Assembly: GCA_029261635.1 (NCBI GenBank)
Contig: JAJDAW010000070.1
Span: forward strand, 1 to 37,857
Length of the DNA: 37,857 nt
Reading direction: 5' to 3'
From: Nitrospinaceae bacterium
GTDB lineage: Bacteria > Nitrospinota > Nitrospinia > Nitrospinales > VA-1
Shown one piece after another: positions 1-6,377 of this stretch. A model generated the notes under the pieces. The model was not told where the DNA came from. It was given only the letters and a program-made list of their open reading frames with translations, and made no database searches. Every line of letters starts with the position of its first letter. Within the stretch, counting starts at the first letter, position 1. The position numbers and the translations under genes were made by a program.

Positions 1-79
1 GTGGCCTGTATGAGATTCGACTAAACCTGACCCCACTAGAGGATCCCGGCATTGATTGCATATAGCGGGGACCCCAGGG
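1..79 (-). ncRNA. Candidate structured ncRNA truncated by the window edge (6S RNA-like, uncertain)
   Basis: GC-rich non-coding stretch directly downstream of an extended -10 TGATATAGT (88-80, minus strand). Resemblance to 6S RNA arms is from recall only; strand is not certain. Confidence 0.25.
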
Positions 80-155
80 ACTATATCAGCTAAAAGGTTT
101 TCAATTCCGCAAGCTGCGCACTCAATCAATAAAGATTTTTCAACAGGCATGGAAT

Positions 156-524
156 TTAGGAATCTGAGCCTTCTGGAAATATTTTGGACATATCGCCCAT
201 TTTCTCCATAGCTTCTTCTTTAGACATTTTGGTGATATCGATACCCATTTCGGCGAGAGCACCGGAGAATGGACATTTGCTGGCACCACTTTTTGGTTCT
301 TCTCCTTCAGCCTGTGCAGCGGGCTTTTCCGTCTCAATTTCACCGGCTTCTGCCATGATGATCCAATGCATTGATTCGATCGTCTGCTGTTTTTCAGTGG
401 TTAGCTTTTGCAAGGTTTCCTTGGTTTCCGGATGGGTTACCATTGCAGCGGCTTCCTGATATTTTTCTAAGGCTTTCTTTTCAAATTCAACAGCTTCTTT
501 CAATGCTGCGGCAGAGTTGGACAT
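156..524 (-). CDS. Half ferritin/rubrerythrin-like protein with acidic C-terminal tail
   Basis: Start re-called to ATG at 524 with AGGAG upstream. ALKEAVEFEKKALEKY...HPETKETLQKLTTEKQQ resembles the first rubrerythrin helix pair. Confidence 0.6.
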   Translation of the reverse strand: MSNSAAALKEAVEFEKKALEKYQEAAAMVTHPETKETLQKLTTEKQQTIESMHWIIMAEAGEIETEKPAAQAEGEEPKSGASKCPFSGALAEMGIDITKMSKEEAMEKMGDMSKIFPEGSDS

Positions 525-678
525 TGTCACGTCTCCTGACAAATAAGGGTAATTAAATTCATTCTGGAATAGTAAAATATACCAAATACGGCATCCAAAT
601 AGCAAGTCGACCTTTTATAGTTTACCTATACAAGAAAGATTGATCGAAAAAAAGAATATATCTTTGGGGCAATAGGTT

Positions 679-1356
679 CTAGTACATTAGCTGTTGGTAA
701 TCTTTCAGCCGTTTCCCTTTTTCATCTCGAAAACAGTTCTCTGTAATTTTCATTTTATGCATTCTGTCTAAACGAAAATTTCTAAAGTCGTTGCGCATTT
801 CGCACCACCCTAGTAGCAGCCAGACGGGGCCAAAAAATGCGAGGCATAAGGGACGCACTTGTCTATTGGATTGTTTACCATCTTCTCTTTTATAGCTGAA
901 TTCTACGAAATTCTTGCTCCGGATGGCTCGGCGAAGTCCTGTAAAGTCTATTGTGACCAGGGGTTTTGCCTGTGACGGCAAGGAGAATAAAAAGGTCTTG
1001 GCAATTTCTCCCTGCAAACTTTCTGGGAGTACGCTGGTAATTTTGTCTATGGCTTGATGGGCAGCTTGACTGAGCCCTTTATCTCCCCAGCTTTCGACCA
1101 TTTGTGCACCCAGCATTAACGCGTCTAATTCTTCGATATCAAACATCAATGGGCGAACTATATAGTCTCTGTCCAGCATATAGCCCACTCCTGCTTCTCC
1201 AATGATCGGGACGCCTGATGCCCCTAAATCAGCGATATCACGATAAACGGTGCGAGTGCTGACTTCCAGTGTATCTGCAAGCGATTGCGCTGTGACCACG
1301 CTTCTTCTTGCTTTAAGGTGTTCAACGATACGAAATAGTCGGTCTGCTCTGCGCAT
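679..1356 (-). CDS. YafY-family HTH-WYL transcriptional regulator
   Basis: MRRADRLF..., VSTRTVYRDI..L...GVPI.GEAGVGY HTH; WYL-like WLLLGWCEMRNDFRNFRLDR. AGGAG RBS upstream. Confidence 0.93.
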   Translation of the reverse strand: MRRADRLFRIVEHLKARRSVVTAQSLADTLEVSTRTVYRDIADLGASGVPIIGEAGVGYMLDRDYIVRPLMFDIEELDALMLGAQMVESWGDKGLSQAAHQAIDKITSVLPESLQGEIAKTFLFSLPSQAKPLVTIDFTGLRRAIRSKNFVEFSYKREDGKQSNRQVRPLCLAFFGPVWLLLGWCEMRNDFRNFRLDRMHKMKITENCFRDEKGKRLKDYQQLMY

Positions 1357-1377
1357 CCCATCTCCTTTTTTGTTTTA

Positions 1378-1406
1378 ATTATACAATGCTGCCACACTAC
1401 TGACAA
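1378..1406 (-). promoter_or_regulatory. Sigma70 promoter of the WYL regulator
   Basis: TTGTCA (1406-1401), 17 nt spacer, TATAAT (1383-1378) on the minus strand. Confidence 0.7.
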
Positions 1407-1423
1407 TATGCTGTCAGCAGTGT
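1394..1423. promoter_or_regulatory. Palindromic operator, probable WYL-regulator binding site
   Basis: ACACT-a-CTGACA-N6-TGTCAG-c-AGTGT between the divergent genes. Confidence 0.75.
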
Positions 1424-1485
1424 TGCTCATAATGTTGAGATAGTCCGCAATCAAAGCGGAAATAACTTAACTTTGGAGAACTTTT

Positions 1486-1947
1486 ATGGGTACGATTCCT
1501 GATGGATTCACTTCTGTAACACCATTTATCACTTTTGATGACACCACAAAGGCTGTTGAGTTTTATAAAAAAGCTTTGGGTGCAGTAGAAAAGTTGACCT
1601 TTCCAGCCCCCGATGGAACATTGATGTATGCTGAAATCCAGATAGGAACAGCTCGATTAATGATGGGTATGCCTTGTCCTGAAACGGGAACAGAATCTAC
1701 AAAGCTTGCTAAAGATTTAAGGGGTTCCTCGGTTTCTTTTTATGTTTATGTGGAGAATGTGGAAGCCGCAATTGAGAAAGCAAAAGATGCAGGTATGAAC
1801 GAGAAAAAAGGAATTGTAGATATGTTTTGGGGTGATCGCATGGGCACGCTTACCGATCCATTTGATATTGAATGGACGATAGCTCAGCATATACGCGATG
1901 TTTCACCTGAAGATATGCAAGAAGCTATGAAAACAATGTGTGCTTAA
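1486..1947 (+). CDS. VOC/glyoxalase family protein (PhnB-like)
   Basis: IPDGFTSVTPFI...AVEFYKKALGA...DMFWGDRMGTLTDPFDIEW. GGAG RBS upstream. Confidence 0.9.
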   Translation: MGTIPDGFTSVTPFITFDDTTKAVEFYKKALGAVEKLTFPAPDGTLMYAEIQIGTARLMMGMPCPETGTESTKLAKDLRGSSVSFYVYVENVEAAIEKAKDAGMNEKKGIVDMFWGDRMGTLTDPFDIEWTIAQHIRDVSPEDMQEAMKTMCA

Positions 1948-1953
1948 ATACTA

Positions 1954-1986
1954 CGAAGGCAGGCGGGTTTATCCCGCTTGCTTTCG
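1954..1986 (+). terminator. 14-bp stem-loop between the VOC genes (no U-tract)
   Basis: CGAAGGCAGGCGGG-tttat-CCCGCTTGCTTTCG with two G-U pairs on the + strand. Confidence 0.45.
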
Positions 1987-2009
1987 CAATATTAAAAGGA
2001 GGAATTTTT

Positions 2010-2360
2010 ATGGGAAACATAAATAACAGCATCAACTATATCGAGCTCCCTATGGTAAAAAATGCCGAGACTAAAAAATTCTACCAGCAGGCGTTTGAAT
2101 GGGAGTTTGCAGATTGGGGGCCGGACTACATTAGTTTTTCCGGGGCAAATATTGATGGCGGGTTCAATGGTATGGGAGATGCGCAAATATCTAATCCCGG
2201 TATCCTTGTTGTTCTTTATGCAAGCGACCTTGGTAAAAAACTGAAAGAGGTGATTCAGGCAGGAGGAGAGATTTTAAAGTCAATTTATGAATTTCCCGGC
2301 GGGAAAAGATTTCACTTTCTCGATCCTAATGGGAATGAGTTGGCAGTATGGTCAGAATAA
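2010..2360 (+). CDS. VOC/glyoxalase/bleomycin-resistance family protein
   Basis: Start re-called to 2010 after AAGGAGG. INYIELP...KKFYQQAFEW.F.DWGPDY...FPGGKRFHFLDPNGNELAVWSE. Confidence 0.9.
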   Translation: MGNINNSINYIELPMVKNAETKKFYQQAFEWEFADWGPDYISFSGANIDGGFNGMGDAQISNPGILVVLYASDLGKKLKEVIQAGGEILKSIYEFPGGKRFHFLDPNGNELAVWSE

Positions 2361-2379
2361 ATTTCAGAGGAAATGGTAA

Positions 2380-2949
2380 ATGAAAAAACGATGCGCATGG
2401 GTGGGGCATAATTCCAAACCCCTGGATATTGAGTACCATGATGAAGAGTGGGGTGTTCCCGTTCACGATGATAAAACATTGTTCGAGTTTCTTATTTTAG
2501 AGGGTGCGCAGGCAGGGCTTAGCTGGACTACGATTCTAAATAAGCGCGAGAACTACCGCAAAGCCTATAATAAATTCGATCCCAAAAAAGTGGCAAAGTT
2601 CGACGATGCCAAACAACAGAAACTCCTGCAAGACCGGGGAATTGTGCGTAATAGATTGAAGGTGGCCGCTTCGGTCACCAATGCCAGAGTGTTTTTAGAA
2701 GTGCAGAAGGAATTTGGCAGCTTCGATAAATATATCTGGGGCTTTATAGGAGGTAAGCCTCGAAAAAATAAATGGAAATCGATGGATCAAATTCCAGCGA
2801 CTACAAAAGAATCAGATTTCATGAGCAAAGATTTAAAAAAACGCGGATTCAAATTTGTCGGTTCCACCATCTGCTACGCCTTCATGCAAGCCACGGGTAT
2901 GGTGAACGACCACACAACAGATTGTTTTAGATACAAGGCTAAGCCTTGA
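2380..2949 (+). CDS. tag: DNA-3-methyladenine glycosylase I
   Basis: RCAW...YHDEEWG, LFEFLILEGAQAGLSW, FKFVGSTICYAFMQATGMVNDH...C. Confidence 0.96.
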   Translation: MKKRCAWVGHNSKPLDIEYHDEEWGVPVHDDKTLFEFLILEGAQAGLSWTTILNKRENYRKAYNKFDPKKVAKFDDAKQQKLLQDRGIVRNRLKVAASVTNARVFLEVQKEFGSFDKYIWGFIGGKPRKNKWKSMDQIPATTKESDFMSKDLKKRGFKFVGSTICYAFMQATGMVNDHTTDCFRYKAKP

Positions 2950-3051
2950 GGAGGGATATGCAATCAAAAGTTCATCCATTTTCAAGCAATGTGTTGTATT
3001 AGGGAAACCACAACTTGAAGTCAAGAATGGACTGATATATTTATAAAACTA

Positions 3052-3492
3052 TTATGGTTTTGCAAAGCTAGTCACCCCATCGTGCCTTATCGATAATATC
3101 CAAGAAAACGTTTCATCAAAAATGTCTATATCATCTGCGCTGGGATACCAAATGTCATTAAAGTGTTTTTCAAGATCATTCACCTTGAATCTATCTACAT
3201 CATCATATCTATACCAATTTAAATAAACACAGCTATTTGGCTGAATATTATGATCGCGCAATAAATCTAGCAAACTAAAGCTATCATCTGATGAACTAAC
3301 ACCATCAACAATCAATGCAATTGTGTTTATTTTTTCAACTAATTTTAATAAGTCGTTGTTTTGATTTAATAGAAATTTTTCAAATAAATTCTTTTGTAGA
3401 TCAGATAAGTCTGCTTTTTTAAGCGAATAATACTCAGGGAAAACTTTATCAGGGTATTCGTTTTTAAAATGCATAATTTTAAATTCTTGCAT
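3052..3492 (-). CDS. Hypothetical protein (AT-rich, possibly immunity-like)
   Basis: 146 aa ORF with RBS; C-terminal DIWYPSADDIDIFD..FSWILSIRHDG looks like a conserved motif. Confidence 0.6.
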   Translation of the reverse strand: MQEFKIMHFKNEYPDKVFPEYYSLKKADLSDLQKNLFEKFLLNQNNDLLKLVEKINTIALIVDGVSSSDDSFSLLDLLRDHNIQPNSCVYLNWYRYDDVDRFKVNDLEKHFNDIWYPSADDIDIFDETFSWILSIRHDGVTSFAKP

Positions 3493-3522
3493 TAACTTGA
3501 CCCCTTAACTTAATAGGGAAAT

Positions 3523-3999
3523 TTATTTACTGCAATATAAGCTCAAGGCAAACCATTTGCTTTCACTTGTTCTTAAAGTGGATTTAAAAATCGAAGGAAT
3601 CTCTAAACCACGTTCACAGTCAAAAAGAATATGGGTAGATTGGCTATAATCTATTCCATTCCTTCTAACATCCAGACTAGAAATACATTTATTGCTGGAA
3701 GTTTTTTTATCTCTCTCGCTTATTACTGTTGCCTGCCATTTATCACTTGATGAATTAAATGAAAAACTAGAATGCCCTTCTAGCCAATTTTTCTCACTGC
3801 CGTTAGGCTCTACTTTTTTAAGTTGGTAAATTTCTAATGGTTTGATTTTTTTGTTCTCGACTTCGATCACACATTTCCCCCAAGGCTCTTCTTTATTTTT
3901 TTGAGCAACTTGATATTCGAGCGACGCGCAATTGTTTAGGATTGCAGCAGAAGCTAGTAGCAGGAAAAAGTATAAAAATTGTATTCTCCAAAATGCCAT
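3523..3999 (-). CDS. Hypothetical lipoprotein/exported protein
   Basis: Start re-called to 3999 with GGAG upstream. Hydrophobic N-terminus ending in LNNC. Confidence 0.55.
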   Translation of the reverse strand: MAFWRIQFLYFFLLLASAAILNNCASLEYQVAQKNKEEPWGKCVIEVENKKIKPLEIYQLKKVEPNGSEKNWLEGHSSFSFNSSSDKWQATVISERDKKTSSNKCISSLDVRRNGIDYSQSTHILFDCERGLEIPSIFKSTLRTSESKWFALSLYCSK

Positions 4000-4009
4000 T
4001 TTGACTCCA

Positions 4010-4411
4010 CTAATGATCTCCGCTATTGCCGTCATAACCGCTTATTGAAGAGCCCCCATCGTCGGGGTTGCTACCAAAACTACCACCGCTCACCTCATTT
4101 GTCAGAAGAAGCATTTCATTTGCGGTGAAATTGGTATCTCCGCCAAAAAATTTATCGCCTACTTCTTGTTTTAAACTTTTAAAATCAAATTCGCCTTCAA
4201 TTTCTTTGGGATTTTGATAGAGGGATTGTTTTTCAATGAACATGGCATAGGCATATCCAATGTAATAATCATTGATTCCATAAATGCTAATGGTCTTTTT
4301 TATTTGTTTTGGCGTGTAGGATTTCAGTTTGCCATATCTTGCTTTTAAAAGTGGCCCCAGTTTATTGATATAGGATTTTAAGGCGACGTATTTTTTAATT
4401 CGTTCGAACAT
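4010..4411 (-). CDS. Hypothetical protein (DUF6559-like)
   Basis: KSYINKLGPLLKARYGKLKSYTPKQIKKT...YAYAMF and a Gly-rich tail resemble DUF6559 (from recall). Confidence 0.55.
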   Translation of the reverse strand: MFERIKKYVALKSYINKLGPLLKARYGKLKSYTPKQIKKTISIYGINDYYIGYAYAMFIEKQSLYQNPKEIEGEFDFKSLKQEVGDKFFGGDTNFTANEMLLLTNEVSGGSFGSNPDDGGSSISGYDGNSGDH

Positions 4412-4539
4412 ATACTTATTCCAAAGAATGATTTTAAAACCATTTTTTTAAATATTGTGTTCTGGAGTTAGAGTGGCAATTTTATGCATCACCTCTTTAC
4501 CTTTACAAGAAAATGCTTGTCTCCCTTTTTTTTAACTGG

Positions 4540-4917
4540 CTATCGGGAAGGCCAAAACTTTGGGATTGATTCCACTGGCAAGTTTTTGTAATAAAACAAA
4601 AAGCTATATTTAATTAGCCAGCTACCTGCAAAACCAATAAAAACAAAAATCATACTTATATTAGGAAAATTTTTTACATATACAATTAAAACCCCATTTC
4701 CTACAGTCATCAAAGACATTAAGCTGCAAACCCAAAAAGCCAACTTGTCCGATTCTTTTATTAATTCATTTTTATCTTTAAAGAATAAGTGATCAGGGTC
4801 GATCGTAAACGAAAAATTTCTCTTGTAACTATTGTGAAATAAACCATATAAAAACATCAGGCCTAATATCAAAAGACCGAACCCCAACGCAAAATTAATT
4901 ATTATTTCTTCCGGCAT
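4540..4917 (-). CDS. Hypothetical membrane protein
   Basis: 125 aa with three hydrophobic segments. Confidence 0.6.
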   Translation of the reverse strand: MPEEIIINFALGFGLLILGLMFLYGLFHNSYKRNFSFTIDPDHLFFKDKNELIKESDKLAFWVCSLMSLMTVGNGVLIVYVKNFPNISMIFVFIGFAGSWLIKYSFLFYYKNLPVESIPKFWPSR

Positions 4918-5015
4918 AAAAAATTAAATTGCCTTTAAAATAGAGAAAACCATTAGATTGTTATTGCTGAAAGAAATTTGCAACATACCGTCAATAGTGA
5001 GCTTGACCTCTTTAT

Positions 5016-6377
5016 TTATAAAATTTGTTTTCCAACGCCGGCTTTATCCAGTAAATTTCTGATTGCATTGTCAGTAGCTAGATCCAGAGCATCTTCCCCG
5101 TGTTCATCCTTGGCATTGATGTTGGCACCATTTTCGATCAACATTTGGACTATTTTTAAATTGCTTCCTTGTACCGCTTGAAGGAGAGGAGTGGACCCAC
5201 ATCCCAGTTCTATATTGACCTCCGCTCCCTTTCGAAGCAGGGCTTCCACCAAACTAGAACTACCATCGCTTGAGGAATTTAAAGGATCAACCGCTAGCCC
5301 TAAAGGTGAAGCCCCACAGTCGATGGCATTCACACCCGCGCCCTTTTTTATCAATTCTAAGGCAATTTTTATTTGTCTCTTTGAAACTGCCTCTAATAAG
5401 GGGGTTTGGCCTGCGATATCGATTGCGTTAACATCTGCTCCGCTACGAATTAACTCTGAAACTATGTCTACTTTTCCCTCTGAAATTCCCATTAATAAAG
5501 GAGTTTGACCTACGATGTCGGTTGCGTTAACGTTTGCCCCATTTCGAATTAATTCTGAAACAATATTGATAGAACCCTTCGACACCGCAATGAACAATGC
5601 CGTCTCGCCAAGTAAGTCTTTTGCGTCCACCTCGGCTCCATCCAACAGTAATTGGCGGACTTCTTGAATGTCCTCCGAAGTAGTCGCTTGCATGAGAGGA
5701 GTTATGCTAAATATTGTGAATAGGCCTACGATTGTGAGCCCAAAAATCAGGATGCTGTATGTCAAGATTCCGAAATCCCCTGCGGACACCGAAGTCTGTA
5801 TTATCCGGTCAGGCTGCTTATCTTGTTCAGTTTTCCAATAAACATTTAGAACTTTCTGTACCTGCCACAAAATATAAGTTTCCCCAAAAACATAAAAGAC
5901 TGTGGACCCTATAAGGATAGATGCCATGGTTGGGTTGGGAACGTTTGAGAACAGGCTGATCAAGAAGGAAGGAATGATAAAAATAGAATAAATCCAAGTC
6001 AATTGGGTTGGTGAAAAAGTTAACGAGCAACCGGCCTCGCTGGCATATTGTTTAATCGTGCGAATTTGAAGAAACCAAAAAAGAAGGAGAATGGCTGTTG
6101 GTAAAAAGACTCCTCCCAGTATTGAGATTATAGTTAAAGGGTTTTCCTTCGCGACAATTAATTCGGTGAATAACAGGGAGACAATTAAAGGCAAAAGGGC
6201 AAAACCTAGAGCCCTCCAGCCTGCTTTTACGTTTAAATTTTTATGGTTTTTAAAATGCTTATAATTTCGATAGAACCAATATGGTGCGTAAAAAGAAAAT
6301 GTCAGTGCTTGCCAGAATATAAGATGCCCCAGAGTTCTAGAGTTACCCGATAAATTCTTATTTTCCTGTGTGATCAT
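5016..6377 (-). CDS. Multi-TM (DUF4234-like) plus ankyrin-repeat protein
   Basis: N-terminal TM region (LTFSFYAPYWFYRN...VQKVLN). C-terminal repeats G.TPL..A...G...IV..LI..GADVNA.D, about 6 copies. Confidence 0.85.
   Translation of the reverse strand: MITQENKNLSGNSRTLGHLIFWQALTFSFYAPYWFYRNYKHFKNHKNLNVKAGWRALGFALLPLIVSLLFTELIVAKENPLTIISILGGVFLPTAILLLFWFLQIRTIKQYASEAGCSLTFSPTQLTWIYSIFIIPSFLISLFSNVPNPTMASILIGSTVFYVFGETYILWQVQKVLNVYWKTEQDKQPDRIIQTSVSAGDFGILTYSILIFGLTIVGLFTIFSITPLMQATTSEDIQEVRQLLLDGAEVDAKDLLGETALFIAVSKGSINIVSELIRNGANVNATDIVGQTPLLMGISEGKVDIVSELIRSGADVNAIDIAGQTPLLEAVSKRQIKIALELIKKGAGVNAIDCGASPLGLAVDPLNSSSDGSSSLVEALLRKGAEVNIELGCGSTPLLQAVQGSNLKIVQMLIENGANINAKDEHGEDALDLATDNAIRNLLDKAGVGKQIL

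Follow-up and report, generated by a model that had tools for sequence, protein, structure and literature searches.

A short WYL regulator of a Nitrospinaceae bacterium and an operator that may serve two divergent promoters in two registers

WYL regulators are a large and recently understood class of damage and phage sensors, and mechanistic work on them has so far been done entirely on long forms that bear a WCX domain. Here, we describe a short, WCX-less regulator encoded by a Nitrospinaceae bacterium on contig JAJDAW010000070.1 (GenBank assembly GCA_029261635.1), all 37,857 nucleotides (nt) of which are referred to below as the window, together with the palindrome lying between its gene and a divergent gene of the VOC superfamily. 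Several described systems bear on this locus. The mycobacterial PafBC motif is tGTCgg(N10)tA(N3)T, contacted at -23..-28, with PafB arginines R46 and R50 reading the guanines of GTC; in PafBC sigma adaptation, only the helix-turn-helix (HTH) domain of PafB reads DNA, and that of PafC holds sigma region 4. PafB needs R181, R204, R208, R211, and R214, as well as the WYL tyrosine Y196, to bind single-stranded DNA (ssDNA), and DriD of Caulobacter crescentus needs its own WYL tyrosine, Y192, for activation. R37/R41 of DriD and R47/R51 of DdaA of Acinetobacter are the counterparts of PafB R46/R50, and both proteins are homodimeric WYL activators from outside Actinobacteria that are already in print. 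DriD acts on the bidirectional promoter of its own locus, where it activates the divergent operon; its site overlaps the -35 position and keeps a constant distance to the -10. According to PMC13004042, three DriD promoter oligonucleotides carry CAA 12 nt after the proximal GNC, and an "optimal -35" was inserted at the center of the DriD site. Finally, Müller et al. (2019) describe a class B, made up of an HTH plus a WYL domain without WCX, which accounts for about 15% of WYL proteins.

The elements of the locus considered first are the following, in window coordinates.

679..1356, minus strand: regulator gene, 225 amino acids (aa), encoding a winged HTH, a three-helix linker, and a WYL domain, with no WCX
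1378..1383, minus strand: -10 hexamer TATAAT of the regulator promoter, from a promoter scan, with a predicted start near 1371
1389..1394, no strand: third half-site, reading CTGCCA on the plus strand and TGGCAG on the minus strand, in direct repeat with the left arm 11 bp away
1391..1426, no strand: extended inverted repeat, the candidate operator, with core CTGACA-N6-TGTCAG at 1400-1417
1401..1406, minus strand: -35 hexamer TTGTCA of the regulator promoter, sharing five base pairs with the left arm
1428..1433, plus strand: -10-like hexamer CATAAT of the putative VOC operon promoter, no -35, with a predicted start near 1440
1486..1947, plus strand: first VOC (glyoxalase-bleomycin-resistance) superfamily gene, 153 aa (PF00903, 5.3e-13), first in the target operon

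The regulator gene and the VOC gene are divergent, and the 129-nt region between them holds all of the promoter and operator elements. An earlier interpretation of this DNA (the original prediction) had proposed that the palindrome both represses the regulator gene and activates the VOC gene in the manner of PafBC; the palindrome, the hexamers, and their spacing were all correctly placed when we reread the sequence. The reading that we favor, and to which we give a somewhat better than even chance, is that the operator of this 225-aa WCX-less regulator serves the two divergent promoters in two registers, with autorepression on one side and activation on the VOC side.

The core of the palindrome consists of CTGACA at 1400-1405, six intervening bases, and TGTCAG at 1412-1417. 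It is embedded in a longer inverted repeat that had been overlooked, with arms of 15 nt each (1391-1405 and 1412-1426) that are 87% complementary and 6 nt apart, and the family consensus of the operator likewise exceeds the core, reading CT-n-CTGACA-N6-TGTCAG-n-AG. Judged by sequence, the palindrome is very probably the operator of the adjacent regulator. A terminator or hairpin role for the repeat was considered and rejected; the repeat stands between two divergent gene starts.

On the plus strand, the VOC-facing element runs from TGTCAG through 10 nt at 1418-1427 into CATAAT at 1428-1433. Hexamers taken at distances of 16, 17, and 18 nt upstream of CATAAT agree with TTGACA at 1, 1, and 0 of 6 positions, respectively, and a promoter scan found no plus-strand promoter before the VOC start. 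The absence of a -35 on this side, noted in the original prediction, is confirmed. If CATAAT is taken as -12..-7, the operator spans -40..-23 with its center at -31.5, and the two triplets fall at -38..-36 and -27..-25. The arrangement is that of a hybrid promoter, with TGTCAG at -28..-23, a -10-like hexamer, and no -35; the -35 position is occupied by the six central bases of the palindrome, which contain no -35 sequence and which neither HTH is expected to touch. The extended repeat stops at 1426, and the -10 begins at 1428. The proximal GTC stands 12 nt before the -10, which is exactly the register of the PafBC motif. By analogy with the described systems, this geometry looks like that of an activator, and it seems to be shared by WYL activators generally rather than peculiar to PafBC. 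Two other explanations of the spacing were rejected. An extended -10 (TGn) does not apply, as the conserved TG before the hexamer is at -14/-13 and not at -15/-14. The other was MerR-type spacer distortion: CTGACA shares 5 of its 6 bases with TTGACA, but 22 nt separate it from CATAAT, and the spacer is overlapped, not filled, by the operator.

The genome examined comprises 2.18 Mb and is 81% complete. With at most one mismatch, the pattern occurs once in the window, where 0.09 occurrences are expected and 9 of 100 shuffled sequences contain at least one match. The full palindrome is found exactly once in the genome, and one-mismatch versions occur at three further places, which is control level (the control pattern gives 5 per strand). 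With a single genomic site, the regulon is local: a search for a wider regulon with the half-site-plus-(-10) pattern gave 12 genomic matches versus 6 for the control, no clear enrichment, and the second copy of this pattern in the window (17888) falls inside a 909-aa open reading frame (ORF). The strong argument is conservation, not within-genome counts.

The regulator is present in 8 of 61 related genomes and at 17 loci in a species-representative collection, and the metagenome sample consisted of the best 80 of at least 578 stretches carrying it. All 19 genome loci counted carry the 18-bp core without a mismatch; they encode regulators 56 to 97% identical to that of the window and belong to Nitrospinota, Planctomycetota, a gammaproteobacterial metagenome-assembled genome (MAG), and two Alphaproteobacteria. 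Locus L006 stands outside the 19 although its core is present, and the duplicates L011, L014, L015, and L018 were dropped. The exact core also lies within 300 nt upstream of the regulator in 15 of the 80 metagenome loci (regulators 44 to 98% identical), six of which 80 offer less than 100 nt of upstream sequence. Among 151 Planctomycetales genomes, six have the regulator gene; the core is kept in four close ones outside the query genome and was not found at a locus whose regulator is 38% identical. In L093 and some other metagenome loci (regulators 44 to 50% identical), the upstream sequence seems to be the end of a co-directional VOC-type gene abutting the regulator start, with no divergent operator, that is, a different operon arrangement of the same gene pair (read from sequence ends and uncounted).

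The original prediction implied that the 10-nt spacing should be fixed in orthologous loci. To test this, we anchored 32 distinct loci on the right arm and scored offsets of 0 to 35, counting as -10-like any hexamer that has A in second place, T in sixth, and no fewer than 4 of the 6 bases of TATAAT. Sixteen loci have one at offset 10 and 3 have one at offset 11; every other offset has 3 or fewer. Left out of this count were L006 (not in the table), L026 (core less than 30 nt from the start codon), and L029 (context identical to L021); by eye, L006 and L026 have the hexamer at N10. The spacing holds in separate lineages, among which the hexamer itself varies: nAnAAT in Nitrospinaceae, TATAGT in an alphaproteobacterial MAG, TAAAAT in L028, and, in the GC-rich Planctomycetota, an AT island reading TAAAGT or TAGAGT. 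The distance from palindrome to hexamer is fixed, and that to the start codon ranges from about 60 to 250 nt (rough ORF calls in GC-rich loci). This pattern of conservation supports a function for the element.

On the regulator side, TTGTCA (1406-1401), a 17-nt spacer, and TATAAT (1383-1378) match the consensus at 11 of 12 positions, and this is the sole promoter-like site found by the scan in 1200-1600, where shuffled sequences average 0.7. The claim that the left arm overlaps the regulator -35 is borne out by the five shared base pairs, and TAnnAT at the -10 position is kept across the Nitrospinaceae loci. Base 1406 is A, giving TTGTCA, in lineages that use the arm as a -35, whereas the palindromic base G predominates in the distant loci where the arm has no such use; this pattern fits a reading in which autorepression arises by mutual exclusion at the -35 and the operator arm. 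The third half-site had also been overlooked. TGNCAG is found at its offset in 19 of 33 loci, namely, all Nitrospinaceae in the table, 5 of 6 Planctomycetota, L027, and L084, with the G and C kept and the middle base variable.

The regulator protein matches HTH_11 (PF08279) at residues 6-59 (8e-18) and WYL (PF13280) at residues 139-203 (5.9e-18), both over the Pfam cut-offs. Its AlphaFold2 (AF2) model (mean predicted local distance difference test score, pLDDT, 83; predicted template modeling score, pTM, 0.58) consists of helices 3-46 plus a wing, helices 74-119, a beta barrel at 149-208, and a short C-terminal helix. The chain of the model ends 17 residues after the last WYL strand; because the WCX domain is absent, the regulator belongs to the class B HTH-WYL proteins. 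Foldseek ranked PafB first (4.5e-11), followed by DriD (1.4e-10) and PafC and then by CapW and BrxR (about 4e-9 to 1e-7). A profile of 58 relatives aligns over nearly its full length with PafC, PafB, and DriD and over the WYL domain only with CapW and BrxR. R35 and R39, which align with PafB R46 and R50, are invariant in all 58, and R165, R188, R192, R195, and R198, which align with PafB R181, R204, R208, R211, and R214, are kept in 97 to 100% of them. The genome contains a single PF13280 match, and no second WYL gene adjoins the regulator. With 244 representative clusters at a threshold of E <= 1e-30, the family is large, and its listed members are mostly 212 to 258 aa long. A 229-position PADLOC model named "WYL" (CRISPR-associated signaling proteins) also matches the whole regulator, at 1.9e-62.

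In the mechanism that we infer, a dimer would set one recognition helix on each GAC/GTC triplet, with R35 and R39 reading the two guanines. These DNA contacts are proposed from the correspondence with PafB R46/R50 and DriD R37/R41, and the protein would presumably be a homodimer, to which the palindrome points. Given that conservation is equal in the two arms and that the genome has a single WYL gene, each HTH should sit on DNA; activation should therefore resemble that by DriD, or by SiwR of Mycobacterium smegmatis, and not that by PafBC, as no free HTH would be left for sigma region 4. On the VOC side, the regulator most likely recruits RNA polymerase to a promoter that would be weak by itself. 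On the regulator side, the same complex would sit 6 bp further upstream, centered at -37.5, so that the left-arm triplet at -33..-31 would coincide with the G and C of TTGTCA on which sigma region 4 depends, and the third half-site would fall at -23..-18, within the spacer of this promoter. Since the G and C of the -35 are shared, polymerase and regulator would exclude each other, and autorepression would follow. The signal is probably ssDNA or another polyanion bound by the WYL domain. The output would be a local anti-genotoxin module made up of two VOC proteins and the alkyl-base glycosylase Tag, and the presence in the operon of Tag, a glycosylase for alkylated adenine, fits a DNA damage signal.

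Several observations weigh against this reading. The WYL-motif tyrosine is replaced by L180, at a position that is variable in the family (most commonly T, 48%), and the missing WCX is the dimer module and half of the ssDNA pocket in DriD and PafBC. DriD and AntJ do not regulate their own genes, and CapW, a WYL homodimer at a divergent promoter, represses in both directions. The agreement with DriD, whose proximal GNC would share the register relative to the -10 to within 1 nt, depends on an inferred spacer of 17 +/- 1 bp. In the spacing count, 13 of 32 loci have no clear -10 at N10 or N11 by our criterion. The loci are not independent either, twelve being from Nitrospinaceae and L002 and L053 being near-copies of the window, and the counts overstate their independence. 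Several of the 13 loci read GCTAnAnC at N9-N11, resembling the alphaproteobacterial -10 consensus.

The main rival is a plain two-way repressor like CapW or BrxR, in which a dimer blocks both promoters, a ligand such as ssDNA releases it, and the VOC promoter then fires from its -10 alone. CapW is just such a protein, a WYL homodimer at a shared divergent promoter that represses both ways and is released by ssDNA, and the stretch covered by the operator on the VOC side is one where polymerase also sits. Also in its favor are the match to the PADLOC model and the fact that sll7009, the one CRISPR-associated WYL protein that we found cited, is a negative regulator. We nevertheless think this explanation rather unlikely. 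A VOC promoter without a -35 or an extended -10 should be weak when derepressed, CapW sites overlap the -10 while the operator here ends just before it, and the spacing to the -10 is kept across phyla, which is expected of an activator and unneeded by a repressor. Moreover, the N-terminal half of the regulator aligns with PafB, PafC, and DriD and not with CapW or BrxR.

It is also conceivable, if improbable, that a WCX-less protein oligomerizes through its Sm-like WYL domains along half-sites 11 to 12 bp apart, thereby wrapping or bending the bidirectional promoter. Where present, the third half-site is one helical turn distant, four distant relatives (L009, L039, L054, and L057) have two palindromes and extra half-sites at 11- to 12-bp intervals, and Makarova and colleagues suggested toroidal WYL multimers; all of the solved WYL regulators are dimers, however, and the third half-site is absent from 14 of 33 loci.

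True PafBC-type sigma adaptation, with one HTH reading the right arm at -26 and the other holding sigma region 4 while sigma is lifted off the DNA, would account for the identical motif and spacing with contact at -28..-23, the PafB-type arginines, and the top fold match to PafB, and the authors of the SiwR study proposed a related mechanism for that homodimer, but we consider it the most improbable of the three, as conservation is no weaker in the distal half-site CTGACA than in the proximal one and both HTHs are thus expected on DNA, the two arginines are absent from the PafC HTH in our alignment, only one WYL gene is present in the genome, and PafBC depends on polymerase to bind promoter DNA, whereas palindrome-binding homodimers do not.

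Returning to the two-register reading and its predicted target operon, the downstream features are as follows.

1444..1460, plus strand: small hairpin in the predicted 5' leader of the VOC operon, with five pairs kept in 3 close Nitrospina loci
2010..2360, plus strand: second VOC superfamily gene, 116 aa (PF00903, 7.7e-06)
2380..2949, plus strand: tag, encoding DNA-3-methyladenine glycosylase I, 189 aa (PF03352, 6.7e-85)

The second VOC gene and tag had been overlooked as the continuation of the operon. The identity of Tag is secured by TIGR00624 (241 bits versus a cut-off of 232.5). The first VOC gene also lies 3' of the operator in L003, L004, L005, L007, L012, L016, and L028, the second is conserved in L003, L004, L007, L012, and L017, and tag holds the same operon position in L003, L007, and L012. 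More broadly, the target classes in orthologous loci are VOC-VOC-Tag, VOC alone, SnoaL_2, DinB_2, AHSA1/SRPBCC, and GST, all small stress or detoxification genes. In the 62-nt gap between the VOC genes (1948-2009), a short hairpin rich in GC precedes an interrupted run of T; no terminator was called there by the scan. The leader hairpin shows no compensatory changes in the 3 close loci, which makes it weak evidence, and no known RNA family was found in window positions 1-5000 at E <= 1. Just beyond the operon, there are a 453-aa ankyrin-repeat protein (5016-6377) and a DUF6559 protein (4010-4411) among several small ORFs without a family match. The neighbors of the regulator in the first 13 kb of the window are the VOC genes, tag, and housekeeping genes, and no cas or defense genes were seen in that region.

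There was also some diversity in the operator itself. In the distant high-GC loci L031, L032, L033, L035, L039, L054, and L057, the promoter pair is symmetric, with TGTCAG-N11-TAGnnT or a near variant on the regulator side; the activator register on both sides hints at positive autoregulation in these relatives. In L009 (2606-2670), L039, L054, and L057, two full CTGACA-N6-TGTCAG palindromes have an extra half-site between them, a sequence arrangement that suggests protein arrays along one face of the DNA. Two further loci differ in other ways. In L007 (1344-1500), about 95 extra bases between the operator and the regulator start codon make for a long leader. In L115 (G092:C112), reading the regulator orthologue means passing one in-frame TGA inside an open frame of 458 aa; an error in sequencing, a broken gene, and a fusion are all possible causes.

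Taken together, these observations allow a broader proposal, which as a whole we put forward only tentatively and regard as more doubtful than the two-register reading by itself. It holds that G-N-C, 12 nt, and a -10 hexamer form a promoter grammar common to WYL activators; that this grammar was inherited by PafB, DriD, and class B and is used in at least Nitrospinota, Planctomycetota, and Proteobacteria; and that activation would not require the WCX domain. With a three-half-site operator, one small protein could repress its own strong promoter and activate the divergent one just by being placed 6 bp out of register, on opposite faces with respect to the two polymerases, and the activating register on both sides in the distant high-GC relatives would give positive autoregulation there.

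The original prediction is thus partly supported. Its parallel with PafBC stands as regards the spacing to a -35-less -10, and it falls as regards the sigma-adaptation mechanism, given a full palindrome, one WYL gene, and one genomic site. A homodimeric WYL activator outside Actinobacteria is already in print, DriD being from an alphaproteobacterium, and is therefore not new. What appears to be new, in the literature that we searched, is a WCX-less family keeping the PafBC/DriD register across several phyla, a three-half-site operator, and an explanation by two registers of opposite effects on two promoters. The locus offers a minimal and very clean promoter system, with a single operator for which two opposite outputs are predicted, a spacing that is conserved across phyla, and targets that are easy to assay. 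If our reading is true, neither WCX nor a heterodimer would be needed for activation from the -26 register, the regulons of uncharacterized WYL proteins would become readable from sequence by a simple rule, and Nitrospina, an ecologically important marine nitrite oxidizer, would have an inducible alkylation and genotoxin response.

Set beside the known systems, the locus resembles each of them in part. With PafBC of mycobacteria, it shares the half-site and spacing, the counterparts of R46/R50 (R35/R39), and the five ssDNA-binding arginines. Unlike it, PafBC is a WCX-bearing heterodimer that uses a single half-site without a palindrome, controls about 150 genes, and does not bind DNA without polymerase; here, the features point to neither a heterodimer nor a single half-site, both arms being invariant across the core-bearing loci. 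As is proposed for the regulator here, CapW and BrxR are WYL homodimers on palindromes in shared divergent promoters, and CapW represses itself and senses ssDNA. They differ in that the operator lies over the target -10, WCX is present, and the systems are defense linked, and only their WYL domain aligns; neither an operator over the -10 nor, in the 13 kb examined, a defense neighbor was found at this locus. AntJ of Photorhabdus luminescens, which is likened by architecture and not by sequence, combines HTH_11 with a C-terminally truncated WYL domain and activates the adjacent operon, and its activity, not its amount, is regulated. Unlike the present case, it uses two direct AATGCT repeats 28 bp apart with no palindrome, shows no autoregulation, and targets anthraquinone biosynthesis. 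It was the sole characterized short HTH-WYL activator found in the literature searched, in which the architecture of sll7009 was not checked.

The two homodimeric activators invoked for the VOC side come closer. SiwR is a local homodimeric WYL activator whose palindrome lies between the -35 and -10 regions and which serves a divergent operon. The stress genes that it targets are small and of the DinB or glyoxalase-like kind, the same classes as the targets here; it is induced by genotoxic stress, binds ssDNA, and sometimes adjoins glyoxalase-like genes. Unlike the regulator described here, SiwR is actinobacterial, has about 320 aa with a WCX domain, and uses a 19-bp palindrome with a conserved GGA at -26; the string "autoregulat" has 0 occurrences in the main text of the SiwR paper. 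DriD (PDB 8tp8 and 9pfv), the second-best fold match, differs in having 327 aa with a WCX dimer domain versus 225 aa without, in half-sites of the form CGAC-N7-GTCG with triplets 7 nt apart versus 8 here, in a multigene damage regulon versus one site in the genome, and in the WYL tyrosine, which is not kept here. In both proteins, a winged HTH is followed by a three-helix bundle and a WYL domain, the half-sites are palindromic G-N-C, and the two recognition-helix arginines are present, their contacts in our case being predicted; in both, the site lies over the -35 position of a -35-less promoter at a fixed distance from the -10.

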